Of a stretch of 38,800 bases of DNA, positions 25,752 to 37,499 are shown in pieces. The notes under the pieces were generated by a model. It saw nothing but the letters and a program-made list of their open reading frames with translations. It ran no database searches and was not told where the DNA came from. Both the position numbers and the translations under genes were made by a program. The stretch is from a virus, in UHGV virus genome UHGV-0203104, one strand, 5' to 3'. The first letter of the stretch is position 1, and each line of letters opens with the position of its first letter.

Positions 25752-28088
25752 TTACAAATATGTATTGCTATGTAGAGATGTGTTTATTCCATCTTCTATC
25801 TCAATTTTTGACGAAGCATACTCATCATTCGCACTATCATCAATATCAAACTCATCTTGTAGATGAAGTGACTCATTTAACGGTCTATAAAACTCACCCA
25901 TCATCATTTTGTAATGGGCAGTATGCTCACTACACTCAAATATCTTCTGAAAAACAATTAAATATTTTTGCACAGACTCCGTATCTAAATTCATATAAAG
26001 ATCATCACCTGCAAAATGAGAACCATCATTAATCCATGACACTAAAGATTTAAATATGATTTTTTCATCACCATAAAAATGACATTCAAGCTTCCTAATA
26101 TCCATCCCACCTAATATCTTAAAGTAATTCTCCAAAATCCTTCGCATTGTATTTTGTATAGTATTATTATTAATATCTGTTCTTCTCAATTCGCACCAGA
26201 GCAAATCATAAGACGTTTTTATTGGGTTTGATTCGCACTTTTCAAGATATGAGACCTTCCCTTTTTTCCTTACAATCCAAAAAGTCTCCTCTTTCATTGC
26301 TTGATTACCGGATCTTTTAGTATTAAAAGTCAACTCTTTATGAAAATAAATATTATGTGTAAGGAATATAATTTGCTTAATATTTCCTTCATCCTTACGA
26401 ACATCCTCCATTAAATCTTTAATCAACGAACTTACAATAAACAGAATATCACTATCTAAACTTGAAATTGGATCATCAAATACTACAACACGATCATCTA
26501 AAACACCTGATGCATTATCACTCCCTCTAACAAGGCTATAAAAATACAAAAAAGTGATAAATGTCTTTTCTCCCTCGCTAAGGGTTGTACGAGCATTATC
26601 TCCACTATCTCTCACTATCATATAATGCTTTTTATCTTCGGAGGGTTTTAAGTAAAAATTTTTGAAGCCATAAGAATCCAGAATCTTGTTAATTTTTGTA
26701 ATAGTTGGAAGAGTACTGGTTTTATTAGACTCAATTGCCTCAATAGCCGAAGCATTTAACATTAACTTCTTTTTGTCTTCCTCTAACCCAGATTTAAGCC
26801 CTTGTAACTTCCTATTAAATTTATCAGATTCGCTACGGTAAGAAGTTATTTCAGACTTTAACTCCACCTTTACGATATATGCCCATATCTGATTAGAAAG
26901 ATTACTAGCCTCTACCTTTCTATTACTGTGTATTTTGTTATTATTATCTATCAATAGATTTGAATCATTCAAAAAAGAAATAAAATCATCAACAACTTCA
27001 CTTAAGTCACTAAAATGAACTGATTCACTTAAAAAATTGCGTTTATTTTTTGCCAATTCAAAATTCTTGTTTAATTCAGATAATACTATCTTAGCCTTAT
27101 CCTCAAACACTTCATAGTTTATGAATGGAGATTTAATCGCCCTTATATCATCTATCGCCTGCAAGATATTATTAAGTTGATGTTCATATTGTAAAACCAA
27201 TGCATCGATTTCTCTTTTTTTTAACTCATATGTTTTATCAAAATATGATGATAGATTATCAAATATATTATCATTTACATCCTGCTGGCAGAATGGGCAC
27301 TTGGGATTAGATTTACTGAAATATGTTAAACCTTCCTTAACCCAATCACTGTTATTGAGCATTGTAATTAAGTCTGAAACACTAACGTCTTTTTTCCCTA
27401 GAATACGCTCACTCCAAATCTCCCTACTCAAAATATCATCTATCCCATTGAAGGATGGAATTGTAATTGATACATGTGATGTCAATTCAGTAGAAAAAAC
27501 AATTTTTGCTTTCTCAATTAGCTCTGCTATTGAGCAAACTTCTGATGTGTTATTTTCATACTCAGCCAACACTCTAGCTTTAAATTTTTCACTACTATTC
27601 CTTAATCCCTCAAAAGCCTTTGAGAACACATTATCATGTTTTACTTTTTGCTTCCAACATGAATCTTTAAAAGATTTTTCATGGTCTTCGATTTGTTTAA
27701 CAACGCCTAATATATTATCACCACCATCTATTAGCTTTTCCTTTGCTATAATAGATTCTATTAGCTTATTTTTTTCTTCTTCAAGAGATATTAATTTCTC
27801 TTCATCCTCCTTAAGATCGCTACCAAGGGTAAATACACCTTTAATTTTATCTTGACTAAAATTTCTTTCAACAAAATCTTTATTATATACGTAGCTTATT
27901 AAAGATATATTATTTTTCCATTTAATCGGACATGTTGGATATTGTTCAGGGTCATTAATAATTTTACTTATAGTTGTTTTACCTGCACCATTAGCTCCAT
28001 ATAAATAGTTAAATTTAGAAAGCCCATGTAAAAGCTGAGTAGGGCCATTATATGAGCCTACTTTGTCAATAACTACCTCTTCAATCAT
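25752..28088 (-). CDS. RloC/PrrC-like (AAA_13-type) ATPase with zinc hook and putative C-terminal anticodon-nuclease-like region
   Basis: 778 aa, strongly AT-rich. Walker A GANGAGKTT (res 31-39), CPFC zinc-hook-like motif (264-267), ABC-signature-like LSEGEK (503-508), Walker B VVVFDDP (534-540), LTHN (576-579), and C-terminal R-x3-E plus downstream His (RRILE 649-653, H670/H691). Sits between Q and the cos-like site. Confidence 0.6.
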   Translation of the reverse strand: MIEEVVIDKVGSYNGPTQLLHGLSKFNYLYGANGAGKTTISKIINDPEQYPTCPIKWKNNISLISYVYNKDFVERNFSQDKIKGVFTLGSDLKEDEEKLISLEEEKNKLIESIIAKEKLIDGGDNILGVVKQIEDHEKSFKDSCWKQKVKHDNVFSKAFEGLRNSSEKFKARVLAEYENNTSEVCSIAELIEKAKIVFSTELTSHVSITIPSFNGIDDILSREIWSERILGKKDVSVSDLITMLNNSDWVKEGLTYFSKSNPKCPFCQQDVNDNIFDNLSSYFDKTYELKKREIDALVLQYEHQLNNILQAIDDIRAIKSPFINYEVFEDKAKIVLSELNKNFELAKNKRNFLSESVHFSDLSEVVDDFISFLNDSNLLIDNNNKIHSNRKVEASNLSNQIWAYIVKVELKSEITSYRSESDKFNRKLQGLKSGLEEDKKKLMLNASAIEAIESNKTSTLPTITKINKILDSYGFKNFYLKPSEDKKHYMIVRDSGDNARTTLSEGEKTFITFLYFYSLVRGSDNASGVLDDRVVVFDDPISSLDSDILFIVSSLIKDLMEDVRKDEGNIKQIIFLTHNIYFHKELTFNTKRSGNQAMKEETFWIVRKKGKVSYLEKCESNPIKTSYDLLWCELRRTDINNNTIQNTMRRILENYFKILGGMDIRKLECHFYGDEKIIFKSLVSWINDGSHFAGDDLYMNLDTESVQKYLIVFQKIFECSEHTAHYKMMMGEFYRPLNESLHLQDEFDIDDSANDEYASSKIEIEDGINTSLHSNTYL

Positions 28089-28220
28089 CCTCTAATCCTC
28101 AAAAAACAGATTAATCCTATCAAATCAATGATAATAGAAGACATTACTTACCTAATTACAAGGTGATCATTTATACAGCTGTGAATAAATCAGGCTAATC
28201 ATCTATTTGTCATAACGCGC

Positions 28221-28240
28221 GCTCGTATCCCCGCCACGCC
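28221..28240 (-). other. cos-like site (G-rich cohesive-end core)
   Basis: Minus strand reads GGCGTGGCGGGGATACGAGC; the first 13 nt match my recollection of the 186/P2 cos core. Exact ends not verified. Confidence 0.35.
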
Positions 28241-28285
28241 TGCCCGCTTTATGTAGTGGTTTTCATGCACCTGCATGATCTACGC

Positions 28286-28317
28286 AAAAGCCCGCCAGTT
28301 CTGGCGGGCCTTAGCAA
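28286..28317 (-). terminator. Rho-independent terminator downstream of the dinI-like gene
   Basis: GCCCGCCAG-ttct-GGCGGGC hairpin followed on the minus strand by TTTTG. Confidence 0.45.
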
Positions 28318-28444
28318 AAACGATCCTCAAACGATCATGCGATCTCATGCGGCATAGACATGCACTACAGAGCTAACGCCTCGCAAGGGCTCGTTGTTCA
28401 ACCTTGCTGACGCCAGAAGCAAGTTCAGACGCCAGCAACGTTTC

Positions 28445-28678
28445 TTAATGCAGCCAGCTGTCGTCTTCCCACACCTTCTGCATAATTTTCATCACTTGTT
28501 TTCTTTCTTCGTCCAGTTGCAGTCCGGTTAGTTCCACACCGTTAGAGCTACCTTTGCGAATGCGAATTACCGTTTTGGGATACAGGGGGCGCAGATTGCG
28601 GTAAAGCTCGGATTCAAGGGCGTCCAGGGTAGACTGGCTAATCTTCTGCTCTTTATCGATCATTATTTCAATGCGCAT
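28445..28678 (-). CDS. dinI: DinI-like protein
   Basis: MRIEIMIDK...LDALESELYRNLRPLYP...VWEDDSWLH parallels E. coli DinI (MRIEVTIAK...WESADDWFVSE); start trimmed to the MRIE Met of ORF 28445..28750. Confidence 0.75.
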   Translation of the reverse strand: MRIEIMIDKEQKISQSTLDALESELYRNLRPLYPKTVIRIRKGSSNGVELTGLQLDEERKQVMKIMQKVWEDDSWLH

Positions 28679-28688
28679 AAAAGTCACC

Positions 28689-28877
28689 TCAGCTGATGAC
28701 ATCCATTGAGCGGTTGTATTCGTGGGTTCTGATTTTTGCCATGAGTTCATCAGTCAATTCAGAAACCCACTGCAGAGCCAGCCCCTTCTCTTCATCACTA
28801 CACTCACTAGCCGCTACAAGCTTAAGAAAAAAATCAATGCGCTGGAGCTTCAAAGACTCCAAAAAATAGTCCTGCAT
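28689..28877 (-). CDS. Small SOS-controlled protein upstream of the dinI-like gene (possible Tum-type antirepressor)
   Basis: 62 aa from the internal Met of ORF 28689..28979; a LexA box sits about 45 bp upstream. Function inferred from position only. Confidence 0.45.
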   Translation of the reverse strand: MQDYFLESLKLQRIDFFLKLVAASECSDEEKGLALQWVSELTDELMAKIRTHEYNRSMDVIS

Positions 28878-28920
28878 CTTTCCTCCTATGACACCACACG
28901 CAATACTGTATGCATAACCA

Positions 28921-28936
28921 CTGTTTATATTTACAG
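28921..28936. promoter_or_regulatory. LexA (SOS) box CTGT-N8-ACAG
   Basis: CTGTTTATATTTACAG with AT-rich spacer, overlapping a -10-like TATATAAT on the minus strand, upstream of the small ORF / dinI-like operon. Confidence 0.7.
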
Positions 28937-29030
28937 TATATAATAATCTTACTGATGTAAAACGTTTTTTTACGTTCATCAGCCTGATATGCCTGGTATT
29001 ATTAAGAGCACGAATTGTTAACCCGCGTAA

Positions 29031-31445
29031 TTAATACAGGTTCCGCCACTGATCATCTTCCTGCAAACGCTGGTTCCGATAGAAGATACGCAGGCCTGCT
29101 CCTGACGGAATACTGCCTCCGCGAAGGAGTAAATCGACCTCTTTCTCGCTGCCATCAAATCCTCTGGACTTCAGCTCATACACGAGCTGCAGTCGCTGAT
29201 GGTCTGTAATTCGCTGTTTGTAGTCTTTACGCCGTTTCGGTTTCACCAGGCGTAACCTTGCTGCCAGTTCCCGGCGCTCTTTTTTGCTCATACTGTGCAG
29301 GTAATCGTGCAGCTCCTTGTCATCCATGCTGGTAATGTCCGTTCTGGGGTTCCCATCAGCTGATTTATCTTTCTCCTGTTGGTTCAAATTTTCAGCAAGG
29401 GGACAGTTATTGCCACGAGTCCAAGGGGCGCAAGCGCCCTGGTCGGCTGCCGCCTCCTGAACGTCAACGGCCTTACGAACCATTTTCCACTTCACTGCAT
29501 GAGTGCAGATCTTGCCCTCTGCAATGGGTGACCAGATGCCATAAATACGAATACCGTGATCGCCATAGGCGGTTGGCTCTTCGTTGATTTCATAAGCGGT
29601 TCTGATGAGGTGATATTTGCGGGGAACCAGTACGCCGCCCTGCTTCATGATGTAGGTGGCAAAACAACCAGCATCAGCAGCAGCCAGGATGGCATCAAGG
29701 CGCGGGTTATCCAGTACCGGCGCACCTGCTTTTTTGTCACCCTGTTGCCTTGCCGCCTGACCAGCCAGCAATCGCAGTTCACGGTAAGCCTGACGCCCCG
29801 GAATGCCAAAGAAGCGGAATTGCTGAACACGATGCAGAGACGCCCAGGCATTAACGTATTCAGCGTTATCACGCAGGGATTTACCCGTTTCCTTACTGAT
29901 CTCGCCAGCCAAACCACGCCCGTCAATATTCTTACTGATATATTTCGCAATGTAGCTTGTCGGCGTTCCTTTGCGCGGGTTTATCAGCTCAGACTTAAAG
30001 CGTGGCCCCGTGTTATTGCCCAGCTCCTCGCGGTCTTCACGGATGGCAAACTTACGCAACAATGCAGTAATGGCGCGGCGGTCTTTTTTGCGCATGAAAC
30101 ACAACAGGTGCCAGTGAACTGTGCCGTCATGATGCGGCTCAGCCACCCGCACGCCATACCAGCGCAACCCGGCTTTGTGCATAGCCTTACGAAATGCAGC
30201 AAACATGCCGACCAGATAATCGCTGCTTTGTCTTACTGTCGCGTTGGTCCAGGTCGGGTTTGGCCTGCCGTTATTTAGCGTGGAATGGAAACGTGACGGA
30301 CAGGTGATGGTGTAGAAAACGGCGCAGTCACCACGCATTTCCGCGATAAGCTCCAGGCCTTTAACACAGGCCATCATCTCATTGCGGCGATGCGCCGGGT
30401 TGCTGCTGCTGGCGTTTACCACATCCTCCATGTTCAGCGTGTCGCCGTCTTCGTTCACCAGTTCATGAGAACGGAAAAACTCCAGCGACTTACGGCGCTG
30501 CTCACGTTTATGCATCACGGCTTCATAGCTGACATAGGGAGATGCTTTTTTGCTGACCAGGCAGACAGCACGCAACTGTTCTTCCCGCCATTCGCAACGC
30601 ATCTTCCATAATTTCCGATACCACCAGTCGGCGCACAGCATACGCGCCAGCGAACCCGGAATGAGTTCATAGGGCACAGGTTTGCGGCGGTTTCTTTTCC
30701 GGCGGAGTTGCTCAAACGCAGGCGGTATGACATCCAGTCGCAGGGTTTCTGCAGCCACCTTTTCCCATGTCTTGCGGATTTCTTCTGGCTTAACATCATC
30801 GGAGGCGTACAAATCACCACAAGCGGCATCAAGACACATGCTCATATGCGCAGCGACAAGGGTAGACAGGCGTTTCACCTGATCCTGACTCATTTCAGGC
30901 AGGATCAGCAGACCGTCCAGCCCTTCATGGCTTGCCATAAAACGAAAAGATGCAGATAGCTGGCTGTCGCGTACATGCTCCAGTCGTTCCAGACATGGCT
31001 TAATCGTCTCACGCAAATAGCGGGAATAAGCCTTTGGCCTGCCCAGGCTGCTGAAATATTCAATACGTTGCATCAGCGGCTTGCTGATATGGGAAGGCTG
31101 GGCGTTGACGTCAGCCAGAATGACCATGTCTGGATTAAAACGCTGCTGCTCATGCACCATCTTTGCCCGGCTAATGAGCTTATCCTGCTCCATTTCGCGT
31201 TGGACAGGATCACGGGATTCATTAAAGAAATAACACTCCCAGACCTGATCACTCAGTGCCTCGCGGCGCAGTCGTTCCTGTTCGTTATCGGTAGCGTACA
31301 GAGTGATCAGGTTTGAAAGCGCAGAAACCGGCGCAACTTCCGCCGGGTCCAGATAAGGGTTAATGGCCTTTTTCGGGCTGTTCCATGAGAATGCTGCGGC
31401 GACCTCGTTAAAGCCGCTGCAGTTGTTCATATCAGCATGGCTCAT
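29031..31445 (-). CDS. A: Rolling-circle replication initiator (A homolog)
   Basis: 804 aa; HUH motif (TVHWHLLCF) and tyrosine motif ([12 protein letters not shown]); size and position as P2/186 gene A. Confidence 0.85.
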
Positions 31446-33885: not shown

Positions 33886-34395
33886 TCACAGCAAACCGAA
33901 TGAAGCACCGAGGCCAGTCACGGTATCAACTGCACTCGCCATCGCAGGATTAGCCTGTAAACGGGCCTGCAATGAAACAGCCGCCAGCGCCATCAGTCGT
34001 GTTACAGAGTTAATGCTGCTGATAGCATCACGACGACCGGCACAGGTTTTTACATCGCCAGATACCGCACCTGCAGCAACACGCCCGATCTCTGCGGTTG
34101 CACTCATGACGTAATGTGGCAGTTTCTCTTTTGCCACCTCATTAATCGGTACACATGGCAGACAATGAATCTGTGCCAGAAAACCATCTACCAGCGTTGA
34201 ATCTTCAGTCAGATCGGTAAGCAGCCAGATTTCTGATGCATTGAGTTGATGCGGTTGATCTGGGTTGAGTTTGTTTCGCAGAGTCTGGACATTCATTCCT
34301 GCACGTTCTGCCAGCTTCGCCATATTGTGACGAAGTGCAAAAGCTCTACAGGCTTCATCAAAATGCGGGTGTTTGGAAATCTTATAATCAAACAT
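33886..34395 (-). CDS. cII: CII-like lysogeny-establishment regulator (186 type)
   Basis: 169 aa, the length of 186 CII; HTH region NMAKLAERAGMNVQTLRNKL; second gene of the rightward early operon. Confidence 0.65.
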   Translation of the reverse strand: MFDYKISKHPHFDEACRAFALRHNMAKLAERAGMNVQTLRNKLNPDQPHQLNASEIWLLTDLTEDSTLVDGFLAQIHCLPCVPINEVAKEKLPHYVMSATAEIGRVAAGAVSGDVKTCAGRRDAISSINSVTRLMALAAVSLQARLQANPAMASAVDTVTGLGASFGLL

Positions 34396-34427: not shown

Positions 34428-34670
34428 TTACTTACCAACAATGACGCGGAAGTTGGAATGACCGAGGGATTCACGGACCTGATCGGTTTTGTACATTAAA
34501 TAACGCAGGCTTACGCGGCCTTTGTTTTTTTCTTTCTTGACCATGTATTTAGCAAGCTGACCATGGTGAATTTTTTGATACACGGAGCCGCGGGAGATAC
34601 CTTCCCATTCCGCGAACTCAGCAGGCGTTGCCATCTCTTTTGGTACACGAATTGAAATATCAGTACTCAT
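34428..34670 (-). CDS. apl: Apl/Cox-like excisionase / early regulator
   Basis: 80 aa with HTH-like ATPAEFAEWEGISRGSVYQKI; first gene divergent from cI. Confidence 0.55.
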   Translation of the reverse strand: MSTDISIRVPKEMATPAEFAEWEGISRGSVYQKIHHGQLAKYMVKKEKNKGRVSLRYLMYKTDQVRESLGHSNFRVIVGK

Positions 34671-34780: not shown

Positions 34781-35419
34781 TTGATTATGAGTTTAATCAA
34801 GGCGGGGAATGATAGTGGTGGGCGCGATGCGATTAATAGGCTTATTAAGGCTTACAACTTCAGCTCACGACAGCAGCTCTGCGAACATCTGGAAGTATCA
34901 AAAAGCACTATGGCTAACAGATACTTAAGGGATAGCTTTCCTGCCGAATGGGTAATCCAATGTGCCCTTGAAACAGGAGCTTCCCTTCTATGGCTGGCTA
35001 CTGGTCAAGGAGATATGTATGTGTGTGAGAACGAAGAAACAAATCTCAAAAATGAACCTCCTGTCACTGTAAGACCACTTTCTAAGATCGTTGCTCCGAG
35101 CATCAAACGTGTTGAACTAAAGAACGGCGAACTGCAGCCAAGTGATGAAATTCTTCTTGATAGCAGCCTGCTTGATGGTGACTCATCCAACGCTTTATTT
35201 GTTAAAACAGCTAATGATAGCTTTGTAGTGGATACGTCTGTTAAACAAGTCAGTAATGGCTTCTGGTTAGTCGATATGGACGGAGTTAAAAGCATCGTCA
35301 AAATTGCGCGCATACCCGGAAACAAAATAGTAGTTAACCAAGATGACACTTCATTTGAATGTTCTATAGATGATGTGGAAGTCGTAGGACGTGCAGTCAA
35401 AATAATCAAGAACCTCTAA
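34781..35419 (+). CDS. cI: Immunity repressor (CI, 186 type)
   Basis: 212 aa; N-terminal HTH (SRQQLCEHLEVSKSTMANRYLR) plus C-terminal domain; immediately upstream of int on the same strand. Confidence 0.7.
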   Translation: MIMSLIKAGNDSGGRDAINRLIKAYNFSSRQQLCEHLEVSKSTMANRYLRDSFPAEWVIQCALETGASLLWLATGQGDMYVCENEETNLKNEPPVTVRPLSKIVAPSIKRVELKNGELQPSDEILLDSSLLDGDSSNALFVKTANDSFVVDTSVKQVSNGFWLVDMDGVKSIVKIARIPGNKIVVNQDDTSFECSIDDVEVVGRAVKIIKNL

Positions 35420-35422
35420 CTT

Positions 35423-36463
35423 ATGACCATCAGAAAACAGCCAAACGGAAAATGGTTGTGTGAGTGCTATCCCAATGGACGCAATGGTAAGCGCGTGCGT
35501 AAGCAATTTGCTACTAAAGGCGAAGCCATTGCGTTTGAAAGCTTCACAATGGAAGAAGTGAACAAAAAACCATGGCTAGGGGAAAAGGAAGATCGGCGAC
35601 ATCTATCAGAATTAATTGAGCTGTGGTATTCCCTGTATGGTCAAACACTCGCAGACCCCAAGCGCCTCATGGCGAAACTTAGAATTATCTGTAATGGTCT
35701 AGGCGATCCCATCGCCTCAGAACTGACAGCTGGTGAGTTTACGAAATACCGCGAAGCACGGTTAAAAGGTGAAGTACGAAATGAAGATGGCACGCTTATG
35801 TCGCCCGTTAAGCCCCGCACGGTAAATCTTGAACAGCGCAACCTATCATCTGTTTTTGGTACACTGAAAAAGCTGGGCCACTGGTCAGCCCCCAACCCGC
35901 TTGCTGGGCTGCCAACATTTAAAATTGCTGAGGGTGAATTGGCGTTCCTGACCTCGGAAGAAATTAAACGTCTGCTGGATGCCTGTGCTGATTCTCAAAG
36001 CCCCAGTCTGCTGATGATTGCAAAAATATGCTTGGCCACCGGCGCACGCTGGAGCGAAGCCGAAAACCTGCAGAGTCATCAGGTATCAAAATACCGTATC
36101 ACTTATACCAAGACTAAAGGAAAGAAAAACCGAACAGTGCCTATTTCAAAGGATTTATATGAAGAACTGCCTAAGAATAGGGGAAAATTATTTACACCTT
36201 GTAGGAAAGCTTTTGAACGTGCGGTAAAACGAGCTGGCATCGAGCTACCAGAAGGGCAATGCACACACGTATTACGACATACATTTGCAAGTCACTTTAT
36301 GATGAATGGCGGAAACATACTGGTGCTGCGCGATATTCTGGGCCATGTCGATATAAAAATGACAATGATTTACGCCCACTTTGCTCCCGACCATCTGGAA
36401 GATGCTGTAACCAAAAATCCTCTTGCTAACCTTGGATGGAGAAGATTAGAAAGTGTTTGTTAA
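35423..36463 (+). CDS. int: Tyrosine integrase (P2/186 family)
   Basis: 346 aa; catalytic region with R...H..R and LGHVDIKMTMIYAH. Confidence 0.9.
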   Translation: MTIRKQPNGKWLCECYPNGRNGKRVRKQFATKGEAIAFESFTMEEVNKKPWLGEKEDRRHLSELIELWYSLYGQTLADPKRLMAKLRIICNGLGDPIASELTAGEFTKYREARLKGEVRNEDGTLMSPVKPRTVNLEQRNLSSVFGTLKKLGHWSAPNPLAGLPTFKIAEGELAFLTSEEIKRLLDACADSQSPSLLMIAKICLATGARWSEAENLQSHQVSKYRITYTKTKGKKNRTVPISKDLYEELPKNRGKLFTPCRKAFERAVKRAGIELPEGQCTHVLRHTFASHFMMNGGNILVLRDILGHVDIKMTMIYAHFAPDHLEDAVTKNPLANLGWRRLESVC

Positions 36464-37499
36464 TAACTATATCCAACAATACCCATGGATATCGTACTTA
36501 CTTATCATAATATATTTTATATATATATGCCTTGAATTATATCTATGCGTATCAAAAAAAGGCTTTAACATGGATGAAAGGCCATTAACAAGTCAATACT
36601 TATTTAAACAATCACTTAGGATTCCTGTATTTTCAGCGATATACTTTGGTATATTTTCCTGGCTTGGACATTCCCCTCAATTTGATAGTGAGGGCTTTAA
36701 TAATTTCATTGCAATTAGCAAGCTTCCTATCGCCTTACTTTCTTTGTCCATACCATTTGTTGCTGTCGTAGCAAACATACACCGCACAGTTCAAACAAAC
36801 CGACAAATTGAGGAAACCAAGCAAAAGAATCTATCTGATAGCTACTATAGCCATCTAAAGTTCGTTACTGATTATTTCACCAATTTACCTAACAAAACCA
36901 TTAAACGCGAACGTCATTATGGTACTAAAGAGATAAGTTATAAAATTAACTACCCAATACATCTATATAGATATATTTTCATAAATAGCTCACCAGAGAA
37001 GGGACGGCCTAAAAATACAGATAAAGAATACATACGTGAAGTGAATAATCACTGGGTTGATATACTAAAAAACCTGGAGAAGATACATTCATCTAATCGT
37101 GGCTCTCAGTGTGACGAAGTTTTAATCCGTCAAATGCAATCTCTTCATTCAATAGAAAAACACTTATCCGAACTTAATCGAATGCTTTGCCTAACTCCAA
37201 TGGAGTTAAATGAACATGGAACTTTATACTTTGATGGATATAAAATGATTACTAACTTCATGTCCAGCATTGAACTTGGCGATACAATTGAAACCTACTT
37301 CAAATTTACCATTGATATTCTTGATATTACCGATAATTTCCTTTCATTCAAGGATGATGGCTCGTCTGGGCAAATCATTATACTTGCAAGATTACTGAAA
37401 GATAATAATCCAGCTATCTTTGATGAAATTATAACAGACAAAGGGAAGGCTCAACCTTCGTTGACCTACAATGGCGACAAATTGGCGGCAGAGGATTAA
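36453..37499 (+). CDS. AT-rich cargo protein with hydrophobic N-terminal segments (hypothetical; possible exclusion/abortive-infection factor)
   Basis: 348-aa ORF (alternative start at 36570, MDERPL..., AGG-containing RBS); strongly AT-rich; apparent hydrophobic helices (IPVFSAIYFGIFSWLG, LPIALLSLSIPFVAVVANI) before a roughly 220-aa soluble domain. Lies between int and attR. Confidence 0.6.
   Translation: MFVNNYIQQYPWISYLLIIIYFIYICLELYLCVSKKGFNMDERPLTSQYLFKQSLRIPVFSAIYFGIFSWLGHSPQFDSEGFNNFIAISKLPIALLSLSIPFVAVVANIHRTVQTNRQIEETKQKNLSDSYYSHLKFVTDYFTNLPNKTIKRERHYGTKEISYKINYPIHLYRYIFINSSPEKGRPKNTDKEYIREVNNHWVDILKNLEKIHSSNRGSQCDEVLIRQMQSLHSIEKHLSELNRMLCLTPMELNEHGTLYFDGYKMITNFMSSIELGDTIETYFKFTIDILDITDNFLSFKDDGSSGQIIILARLLKDNNPAIFDEIITDKGKAQPSLTYNGDKLAAED

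Follow-up and report, generated by a model that had tools for sequence, protein, structure and literature searches.

The repressors of the 186 type (CI) are inactivated by the binding of an antirepressor and not by RecA-mediated cleavage (PMC3121763). In phage 186, the Tum protein binds CI and keeps it from attaching to the operators, as the work of Shearwin (1998) is cited by Lemire et al. (2011, PMC3121763). The latter authors describe Tum as resembling a fusion of an antirepressor with DinI, and note that tum is divided in two by a stop codon in Fels-2 and PSP3, where the upstream half is the antirepressor. For the SOS and LexA dependence of Fels-2 tum, they cite Bunny et al. (2002); a personal communication from G. 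E. Christie is among their other sources. In the sequence record of 186, Tum is a single protein of 146 amino acids; shorter, DinI-like products that begin at annotated internal starts are said there to 'modulate SOS induction'. The promoter p95 is annotated in this record as TTCACA and TACTGT separated by 18 nt, and the -10 element is the left arm of a LexA box. The record of PSP3 has entries for tumA ('UV induction of prophage') and for tumB.

Genetic data are available for the E. coli HS prophage DuoHS. An in-frame deletion of its 'tum' (ECHS_RS04495, the locus tag being given in the supplementary data), which joined the start and stop codons of a 62-aa gene, abolishes induction by mitomycin C, and a lexA(Ind-) allele separately has the same effect (Phollow study, PMC12055606). 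Other small LexA-repressed antirepressors, GfoA, GftA and FsoA, are encoded by the Gifsy and Fels-1 prophages; they are co-transcribed with a dinI homologue, several repressors can be their targets in trans, and cross-induction between co-resident prophages was shown for the Gifsy antirepressors (PMC3121763). The gene order in the Gifsy and Fels-1 operons, with dinI first, is the reverse of that described below. Lemire et al. place the Gifsy-type repressors in a gfoR/gtgR group with relationship to DicA and RacR, and do not describe them as 186-type CI (PMC3121763).

The window analyzed in this study is the complete 38,800-nt stretch of the virus genome UHGV-0203104. Its minus strand contains what is very probably the SOS-induction operon of a Fels-2-type prophage (186-family, P2-like), in which tum is split into tumA and tumB (Table 1). 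The order of the genes, a 62-aa ORF and then a DinI-like gene, is that given in a first-pass annotation made from the sequence. The tumA gene ends with TGA (28689–28691) and is separated by a 10-nt gap from tumB, which has a separate Shine-Dalgarno sequence (GAGG) and ATG codon. Thus the two halves, which form one polypeptide in 186, are not in one reading frame and constitute two cistrons in the window. The system is already known from 186, PSP3, Fels-2 and DuoHS, and the locus is real but ordinary.

Table 1. Features of the tum operon and of the lysis-lysogeny switch in the window.
Feature	Coordinates	Strand	Basis
-35 element TTTACA of the putative tum promoter (p95 equivalent)	28956..28961	-	read from sequence; placed by analogy with 186 p95
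-10 element TACTGT, doubling as left arm of LexA box 1	28933..28938	-	as in the annotated 186 p95
LexA box 1 (distal), TACTGTAAATATAAACAGTG, near-consensus	28919..28938	-	23.5 bits
LexA box 2 (proximal), CAGTGGTTATGCATACAGTA, weaker	28904..28923	-	14.7 bits
Shine-Dalgarno sequence AGGAGG of tumA	28882..28887	-	read from sequence
tumA, 62 codons, ATG at 28877	28689..28877	-	homologue of 186 Tum N-terminal half
tumB, 77 codons, DinI family	28445..28678	-	equivalent to 186 Tum C-terminal half
Long hairpin without U tract, immediately past the tumB stop codon	28400..28442	-	RNA fold
Intrinsic terminator: 11-bp GC-rich stem, 4-nt loop, U run	28283..28312	-	RNA fold, region z-score -3.7
cII homologue	33886..34395	divergent from cI	70% identical to 186 CII
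apl homologue	34428..34670	divergent from cI	30% identical to 186 Apl
cI, 186-type immunity repressor, presumed target of TumA	34787..35419	+	33% identical to 186 CI, full length

The operon is located directly downstream of a gene (29031–31445) encoding the P2/186 gpA replicase (Pfam, 2e-127), in a phage that has a 186-type CI. This CI is 91% identical to that of Fels-2 and 38% identical to that of DuoHS, and its gene is adjoined by an integrase gene. Based on the homology of CI, Apl and CII, the lysis-lysogeny switch is assigned to the 186 type and not to the P2 type.

A variable cargo slot separates the tum terminator from the portal gene, and it contains different genes in each of Fels-2, DuoHS and vB_EcoM-813R9. 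In the window, it is filled by a gene on the minus strand (25752–28088) with a GC content of 30.7%, compared with 49.6% for the whole window. The gene encodes a 778-aa AAA_13 ATPase with a match (E 1.5e-266) to PDC-S06, a candidate defence family in PADLOC. Its position and orientation are the same as those of orf97 in 186, whose expression comes from p95 read-through. Another low-GC ORF (33.9%; 348 aa; 36453–37499, plus strand) lies at the edge of the prophage, directly past the integrase gene.

A generic sigma-70 promoter scan detected no promoter, hence the tum promoter was placed by analogy with the annotated p95 of 186. The spacer between its putative -35 and -10 elements is 17 nt. The sequence CTGTTTATATTTACAG (28921–28936, plus strand) is the sole match of the window to the pattern CTGT-N8-ACAG. 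Such a loose pattern is weak evidence by itself, with 0.41 matches expected by chance and at least one match in 37 of 100 shuffled sequences; the site was therefore rescored with a LexA weight matrix of 20 nt, for which 18 classic E. coli SOS boxes from the literature served as training sites. Box 1, which includes this match, had the top score among 38,781 positions, and the median of the training sites is 21.2 bits. A LexA operator overlapping the tumA promoter is thus predicted by both matrix score and position. The first-pass annotation had reported a textbook LexA box at 28921–28936 overlapping a -10-like element, and both observations hold, the overlap with TACTGT being of the same design as in 186 p95. 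The second LexA-like box was absent from that annotation.

The first-pass annotation could name no motif in the 62-aa protein, and in our Pfam search the protein likewise had no match. TumA and 186 Tum showed no similarity in BLASTP, although a gapless alignment of TumA with the N-terminal half of Tum can be made by eye. A deep profile search of 1.84 billion representatives found 86 relatives of TumA, nearly all of 60–70 aa, and the distant members of this set form a visible bridge to Tum. In an hhalign comparison, the broad TumA profile (a 38-sequence family alignment) matched a 40-sequence alignment of Tum N-terminal homologues with a probability of 96.8% and an E-value of 2.4e-10, positions 2–46 being aligned to positions 2–46 in register. 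The match of the narrow family was weak (P 0.0014, probability 17%). Given this and the negative BLASTP result, the N-terminal halves have diverged to a point where homology is visible only via a broad profile that includes distant members. Among the PHROG families, phrog_698, to which TumA itself belongs, is matched by the N-terminal half of 186 Tum at 5.9e-6, and phrog_8554 and phrog_1993 are matched by both proteins. The profile matches identify the 62-aa ORF as TumA, that is, the putative antirepressor half of Tum encoded by a separate cistron. The first-pass annotation had left the identity of the antirepressor open; the homology to the N-terminal half of Tum and the published deletion of the DuoHS orthologue both point to the 62-aa protein as the inducer. 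Stand-alone proteins of 63–72 aa that match the N-terminal half of 186-type Tum are also common, and thus the split state of tum is widespread.

An AlphaFold (AF2) model of TumA is a two-helix hairpin (pLDDT 88.4) with a conserved Cys26 in the turn. Comparison of the model with PDB by Foldseek gave only generic helical hairpins (best E 0.69), and a profile search of PDB sequences with TumA found nothing. In a few sources TumA is named 'levan regulatory protein'; this name was rejected, as neither Pfam nor profile searches support it. Many divergent TumA proteins have a conserved glycine-rich C-terminal tail (...NPQxGGxxxGGxLQ) that TumA of the window does not have. Examples are proteins P0266, P0276, P0278, P0297, P0298 and P0308, and loci L007–L015 and L088–L092.

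The product of the second gene, TumB, matches the Pfam DinI family (PF06183) in residues 14–76 with an E-value of 6.6e-23 and 81.3 bits (cut-off 24.2), and is 41% identical to residues 71–145 of 186 Tum. It also aligns with a DinI sequence. By analogy with other members of the family, TumB most likely modulates the activity of RecA filaments.

A terminator after the DinI-like gene, as described in the first-pass annotation, does exist and is canonical, but it lies 133 nt past the tumB stop codon (Table 1), outside the interval delimited by that annotation. A simple terminator scan missed it, its sole output being a weak hairpin across the stop codon of tumA. The stable hairpin (11+3 bp) that immediately follows tumB is located where 186 has the partial terminator t95a. 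Possible roles of this hairpin are stabilization of the RNA, or termination that is weak or regulated.

Both proteins are nearly or completely identical to those of described prophages. TumA is identical in 61 of 62 positions (98%) to STM2728 of the Salmonella LT2 prophage Fels-2 and to ECHS_RS04495 of DuoHS. TumB is identical in all 77 positions to STM2726.1 of Fels-2 and to ECHS_RS04500 of DuoHS, and is 78% identical to PSP3 TumB. Fels-2 and DuoHS share the gene order of the window, with gpA followed by the LexA operator, the 62-aa gene and the DinI-like gene, and their promoters and operators are near-identical to that of the window, with a few base differences in the spacer of box 2. The genes downstream of the terminator differ between the window, Fels-2 and DuoHS. 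The similarity to 186 includes a LexA box over a TACTGT -10 element, the site downstream of gene A, the antirepressor and DinI-like halves, and the presence of CI, Apl and CII. In contrast to the window, 186 has a single LexA box, and its downstream gene is orf97 and not a PDC-S06 gene. In PSP3, tumA and tumB are split and follow a LexA box as in the window, but the box is single, and PSP3 TumA represents a third, more divergent type with a marginal match to the family profile (P 0.004).

The first-pass annotation had proposed a LexA-controlled antirepressor arrangement like that of 186 tum. The 186-type switch, the homology to both halves of Tum and the near-identity to Fels-2 and DuoHS agree with this proposal. 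The predicted control and the two halves correspond to those of 186, but the gene is split as in PSP3 and Fels-2 and is not a fusion. Its further suggestion, that the arrangement makes the prophage SOS-inducible, is supported by the published genetics of the near-identical Fels-2 and DuoHS genes.

Conservation of the module was analyzed in two sets of relatives. About 150 IMG/VR loci with divergent TumA-like proteins represent 47 distinct protein variants. A LexA box of 17–28.5 bits is present 20–45 nt upstream of the start codon in 46 of these variants, and it is by far the best site of the approximately 3-kb locus and is located just downstream of a gpA-like ORF. These distant loci have a single LexA box. 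No DinI-like ORF was found downstream on the same strand in any of the 47 variants. Since the box recurs in 46 of 47 variants and the DinI-like ORF does not accompany it, the LexA box and TumA are, as judged from these loci, the conserved core of the system. By the same comparison, TumB is an addition of the 186/PSP3/Fels-2 lineage, and box 2 an addition of the Fels-2 lineage.

The close set comprises 49 promoter variants from 80 contigs encoding identical TumA. The -35 and -10 elements and box 1 are almost invariant in this set (TTTACA and AGGAGG are invariant), and box 1 scores 17–26 bits. Positions 28912–28913, in the center of box 2, and 28899, in the 5' leader, are polymorphic in approximately 40% of the promoter variants; relative to the tumA ATG, the polymorphic positions are -36, -35 and -22. 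Two loci, L164 (upstream of 701) and L022 (upstream of 1501), have unrelated GC-rich DNA in place of the promoter and box 1, and L164 retains only the right half of box 2. These loci may be rearranged copies or copies free of LexA control.

The operator of the window differs from those of 186 and PSP3 by box 2, the second-best LexA-like position in 38.8 kb; the third-best scores only 9.8 bits. It lies exactly 15 bp, or one box-length, downstream of box 1, so that the 16-nt cores (28921–28936 and 28906–28921) overlap by one base, G28921. The simplest alternative is that a single LexA box controls the operon as in 186 p95, and that box 2 is a chance or vestigial sequence not bound by LexA. It is consistent with the low score of box 2, close to the minimum of the training range (13.1 bits), and with the single box in 186, PSP3 and all distant TumA loci. 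In the 49 promoter variants, the score of box 2 has a median of 15.1 bits and a range of 8.6–17.8, and a constraint test did not show its substitutions to be significantly more benign than expected at random (P 0.09). On the other hand, the common polymorphisms of box 2 fall in two central spacer positions, and the rank and spacing of the box argue against chance. Moreover, a blastn search of plasmids with the 51-nt operator matched many small Col-type plasmids, at sites just upstream of the colicin N gene (cna) and of the gene for a tRNase bacteriocin of Klebsiella. The 36-nt operators of the window (ACTGTAAATATAAACAGTGGTTATGCATACAGTATT) and of the plasmids (ACTGTATATAAAACCAGTGGTTATGTGTACAGTATT) agree almost base for base, down to the left arm GTGG, which is unusual. 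The colicin-type operators (colicin N, E1 and Klebsiella bacteriocins) consist, as in the window, of two LexA boxes with one shared base; they govern a bacteriocin, whereas the operator of the window governs a prophage antirepressor. The double SOS operators of colicins bind two LexA dimers and allow no detectable basal expression (PMC2994835). On balance, we consider control by box 1 alone rather unlikely and box 2 likely functional, and by analogy with the colicins the operator of the window is probably bound by two LexA dimers.

DinI-family proteins act on RecA filaments, and one could suppose that TumB is the effector of induction via RecA and that the 62-aa protein is accessory or non-functional. 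In the 186 record, it is the short DinI-like forms of Tum that are credited with modulating the SOS induction, and the deletion in DuoHS could in principle have cut coupled translation of tumB, as the genes are 10 nt apart. This explanation is nevertheless very improbable. The DuoHS deletion was in-frame and restricted to the 62-aa gene, and it abolished induction (PMC12055606); the upstream gene of PSP3 carries the antirepressor activity, and 186-type CI is inactivated by an antirepressor and not through RecA (PMC3121763). In addition, TumA and its LexA box are kept without a DinI gene in 46 of the 47 divergent variants. We therefore regard TumA as the inducer and TumB as an accessory of one lineage only. 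It is also conceivable that the module is intact in a prophage defective elsewhere, so that the operon is just an SOS-induced host-modulating cassette; the prophage BTP5, for example, expresses tum highly and gives no detectable infectious phage (PMC7067206). However, the window has ORFs for int, cI, apl, cII, gpA, portal, terminase, capsid, tail and lysis-size proteins in P2 order. Furthermore, its tum region (query 28200–29300) is 99.5% identical to that of the isolated phage vB_EcoM-813R9, whose record has the same early-gene order upstream of this region, with the gpB replication protein, a methylase and gpA. This makes a defective prophage unlikely.

With tumA and tumB as the SOS-induction operon, the following course of events is proposed. 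In the lysogen, LexA bound to the operator that overlaps the -10 element would keep the operon silent, probably as two dimers on the colicin-type pair of boxes overlapping by one base. Upon DNA damage, activated RecA would promote self-cleavage of LexA, and the operon would be transcribed. TumA would then bind the 186-type CI and stop its binding to the operator, with firing of the lytic promoter and induction of the prophage as the result. TumB would most likely modulate the RecA filament and so tune the SOS signal in its timing or extent. We infer the LexA binding, the TumA–CI interaction and the inducibility of this particular prophage from comparison with the described systems.

The most likely surface contacted by TumA is the conserved N-terminal DNA-binding domain of CI. 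Among 60 IMG/VR contigs (within loci L247–L326) encoding TumA 100% identical to that of the window, the upstream CI proteins form 10 clusters with 33–72% identity. Conservation of CI across these clusters peaks in the N-terminal HTH domain: the majority fraction is 0.78–0.85 at residues 11–75, compared with 0.43–0.59 elsewhere. The CI of 186, the partner of a divergent Tum N-terminal domain, differs in the same N-terminal stretch. Similarly, TumA is 98% identical in the window, Fels-2 and DuoHS, although the CI of DuoHS is only 38% identical to that of the window. These comparisons suggest that one TumA serves many repressor types. Its interaction with the DNA-binding domain would explain how operator binding is blocked, and recognition of a conserved CI domain predicts cross-induction of co-resident heteroimmune prophages, as was observed with the Gifsy antirepressors. 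We tentatively speculate that the Fels-2-type TumA is a pan-immunity antirepressor, which could recognise the N-terminal domains of 186-family CI proteins whatever their immunity type and cross-induce heteroimmune co-residents, with the double operator setting a high damage threshold; we hold this possible, if somewhat short of probable.

The 521-bp module (28445–28965) was found in 1,125 of 5,426 complete E. coli genomes, about one in five, with up to three copies per genome. Despite the published genetics, there is an annotation gap for TumA: it is a 'hypothetical protein' in RefSeq (PGAP), a protein of 'unknown function' in PHROG 698 and occasionally a 'levan regulatory protein'. The profile link to Tum, together with the published deletion in DuoHS, makes the annotations of this 62-aa family correctable. 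The basic picture was already set by 186, PSP3, Fels-2 and DuoHS and is unchanged. The additions made here, namely the homology to Tum as seen by profiles, a double operator of colicin type, a DinI partner that is optional and the occurrence of one TumA with many CIs, are modest refinements. The double operator and the association of one TumA with many CI proteins give rise to testable hypotheses on the timing of induction and on cross-talk between prophages. If the pan-immunity hypothesis is true, any one of the heteroimmune P2-like prophages residing in a cell would trigger the others, and the colicin-type double LexA operator would represent a high damage threshold for a collective decision. 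The module is the switch for the release of a very common family of enterobacterial prophages after DNA damage, including that caused by antibiotics.
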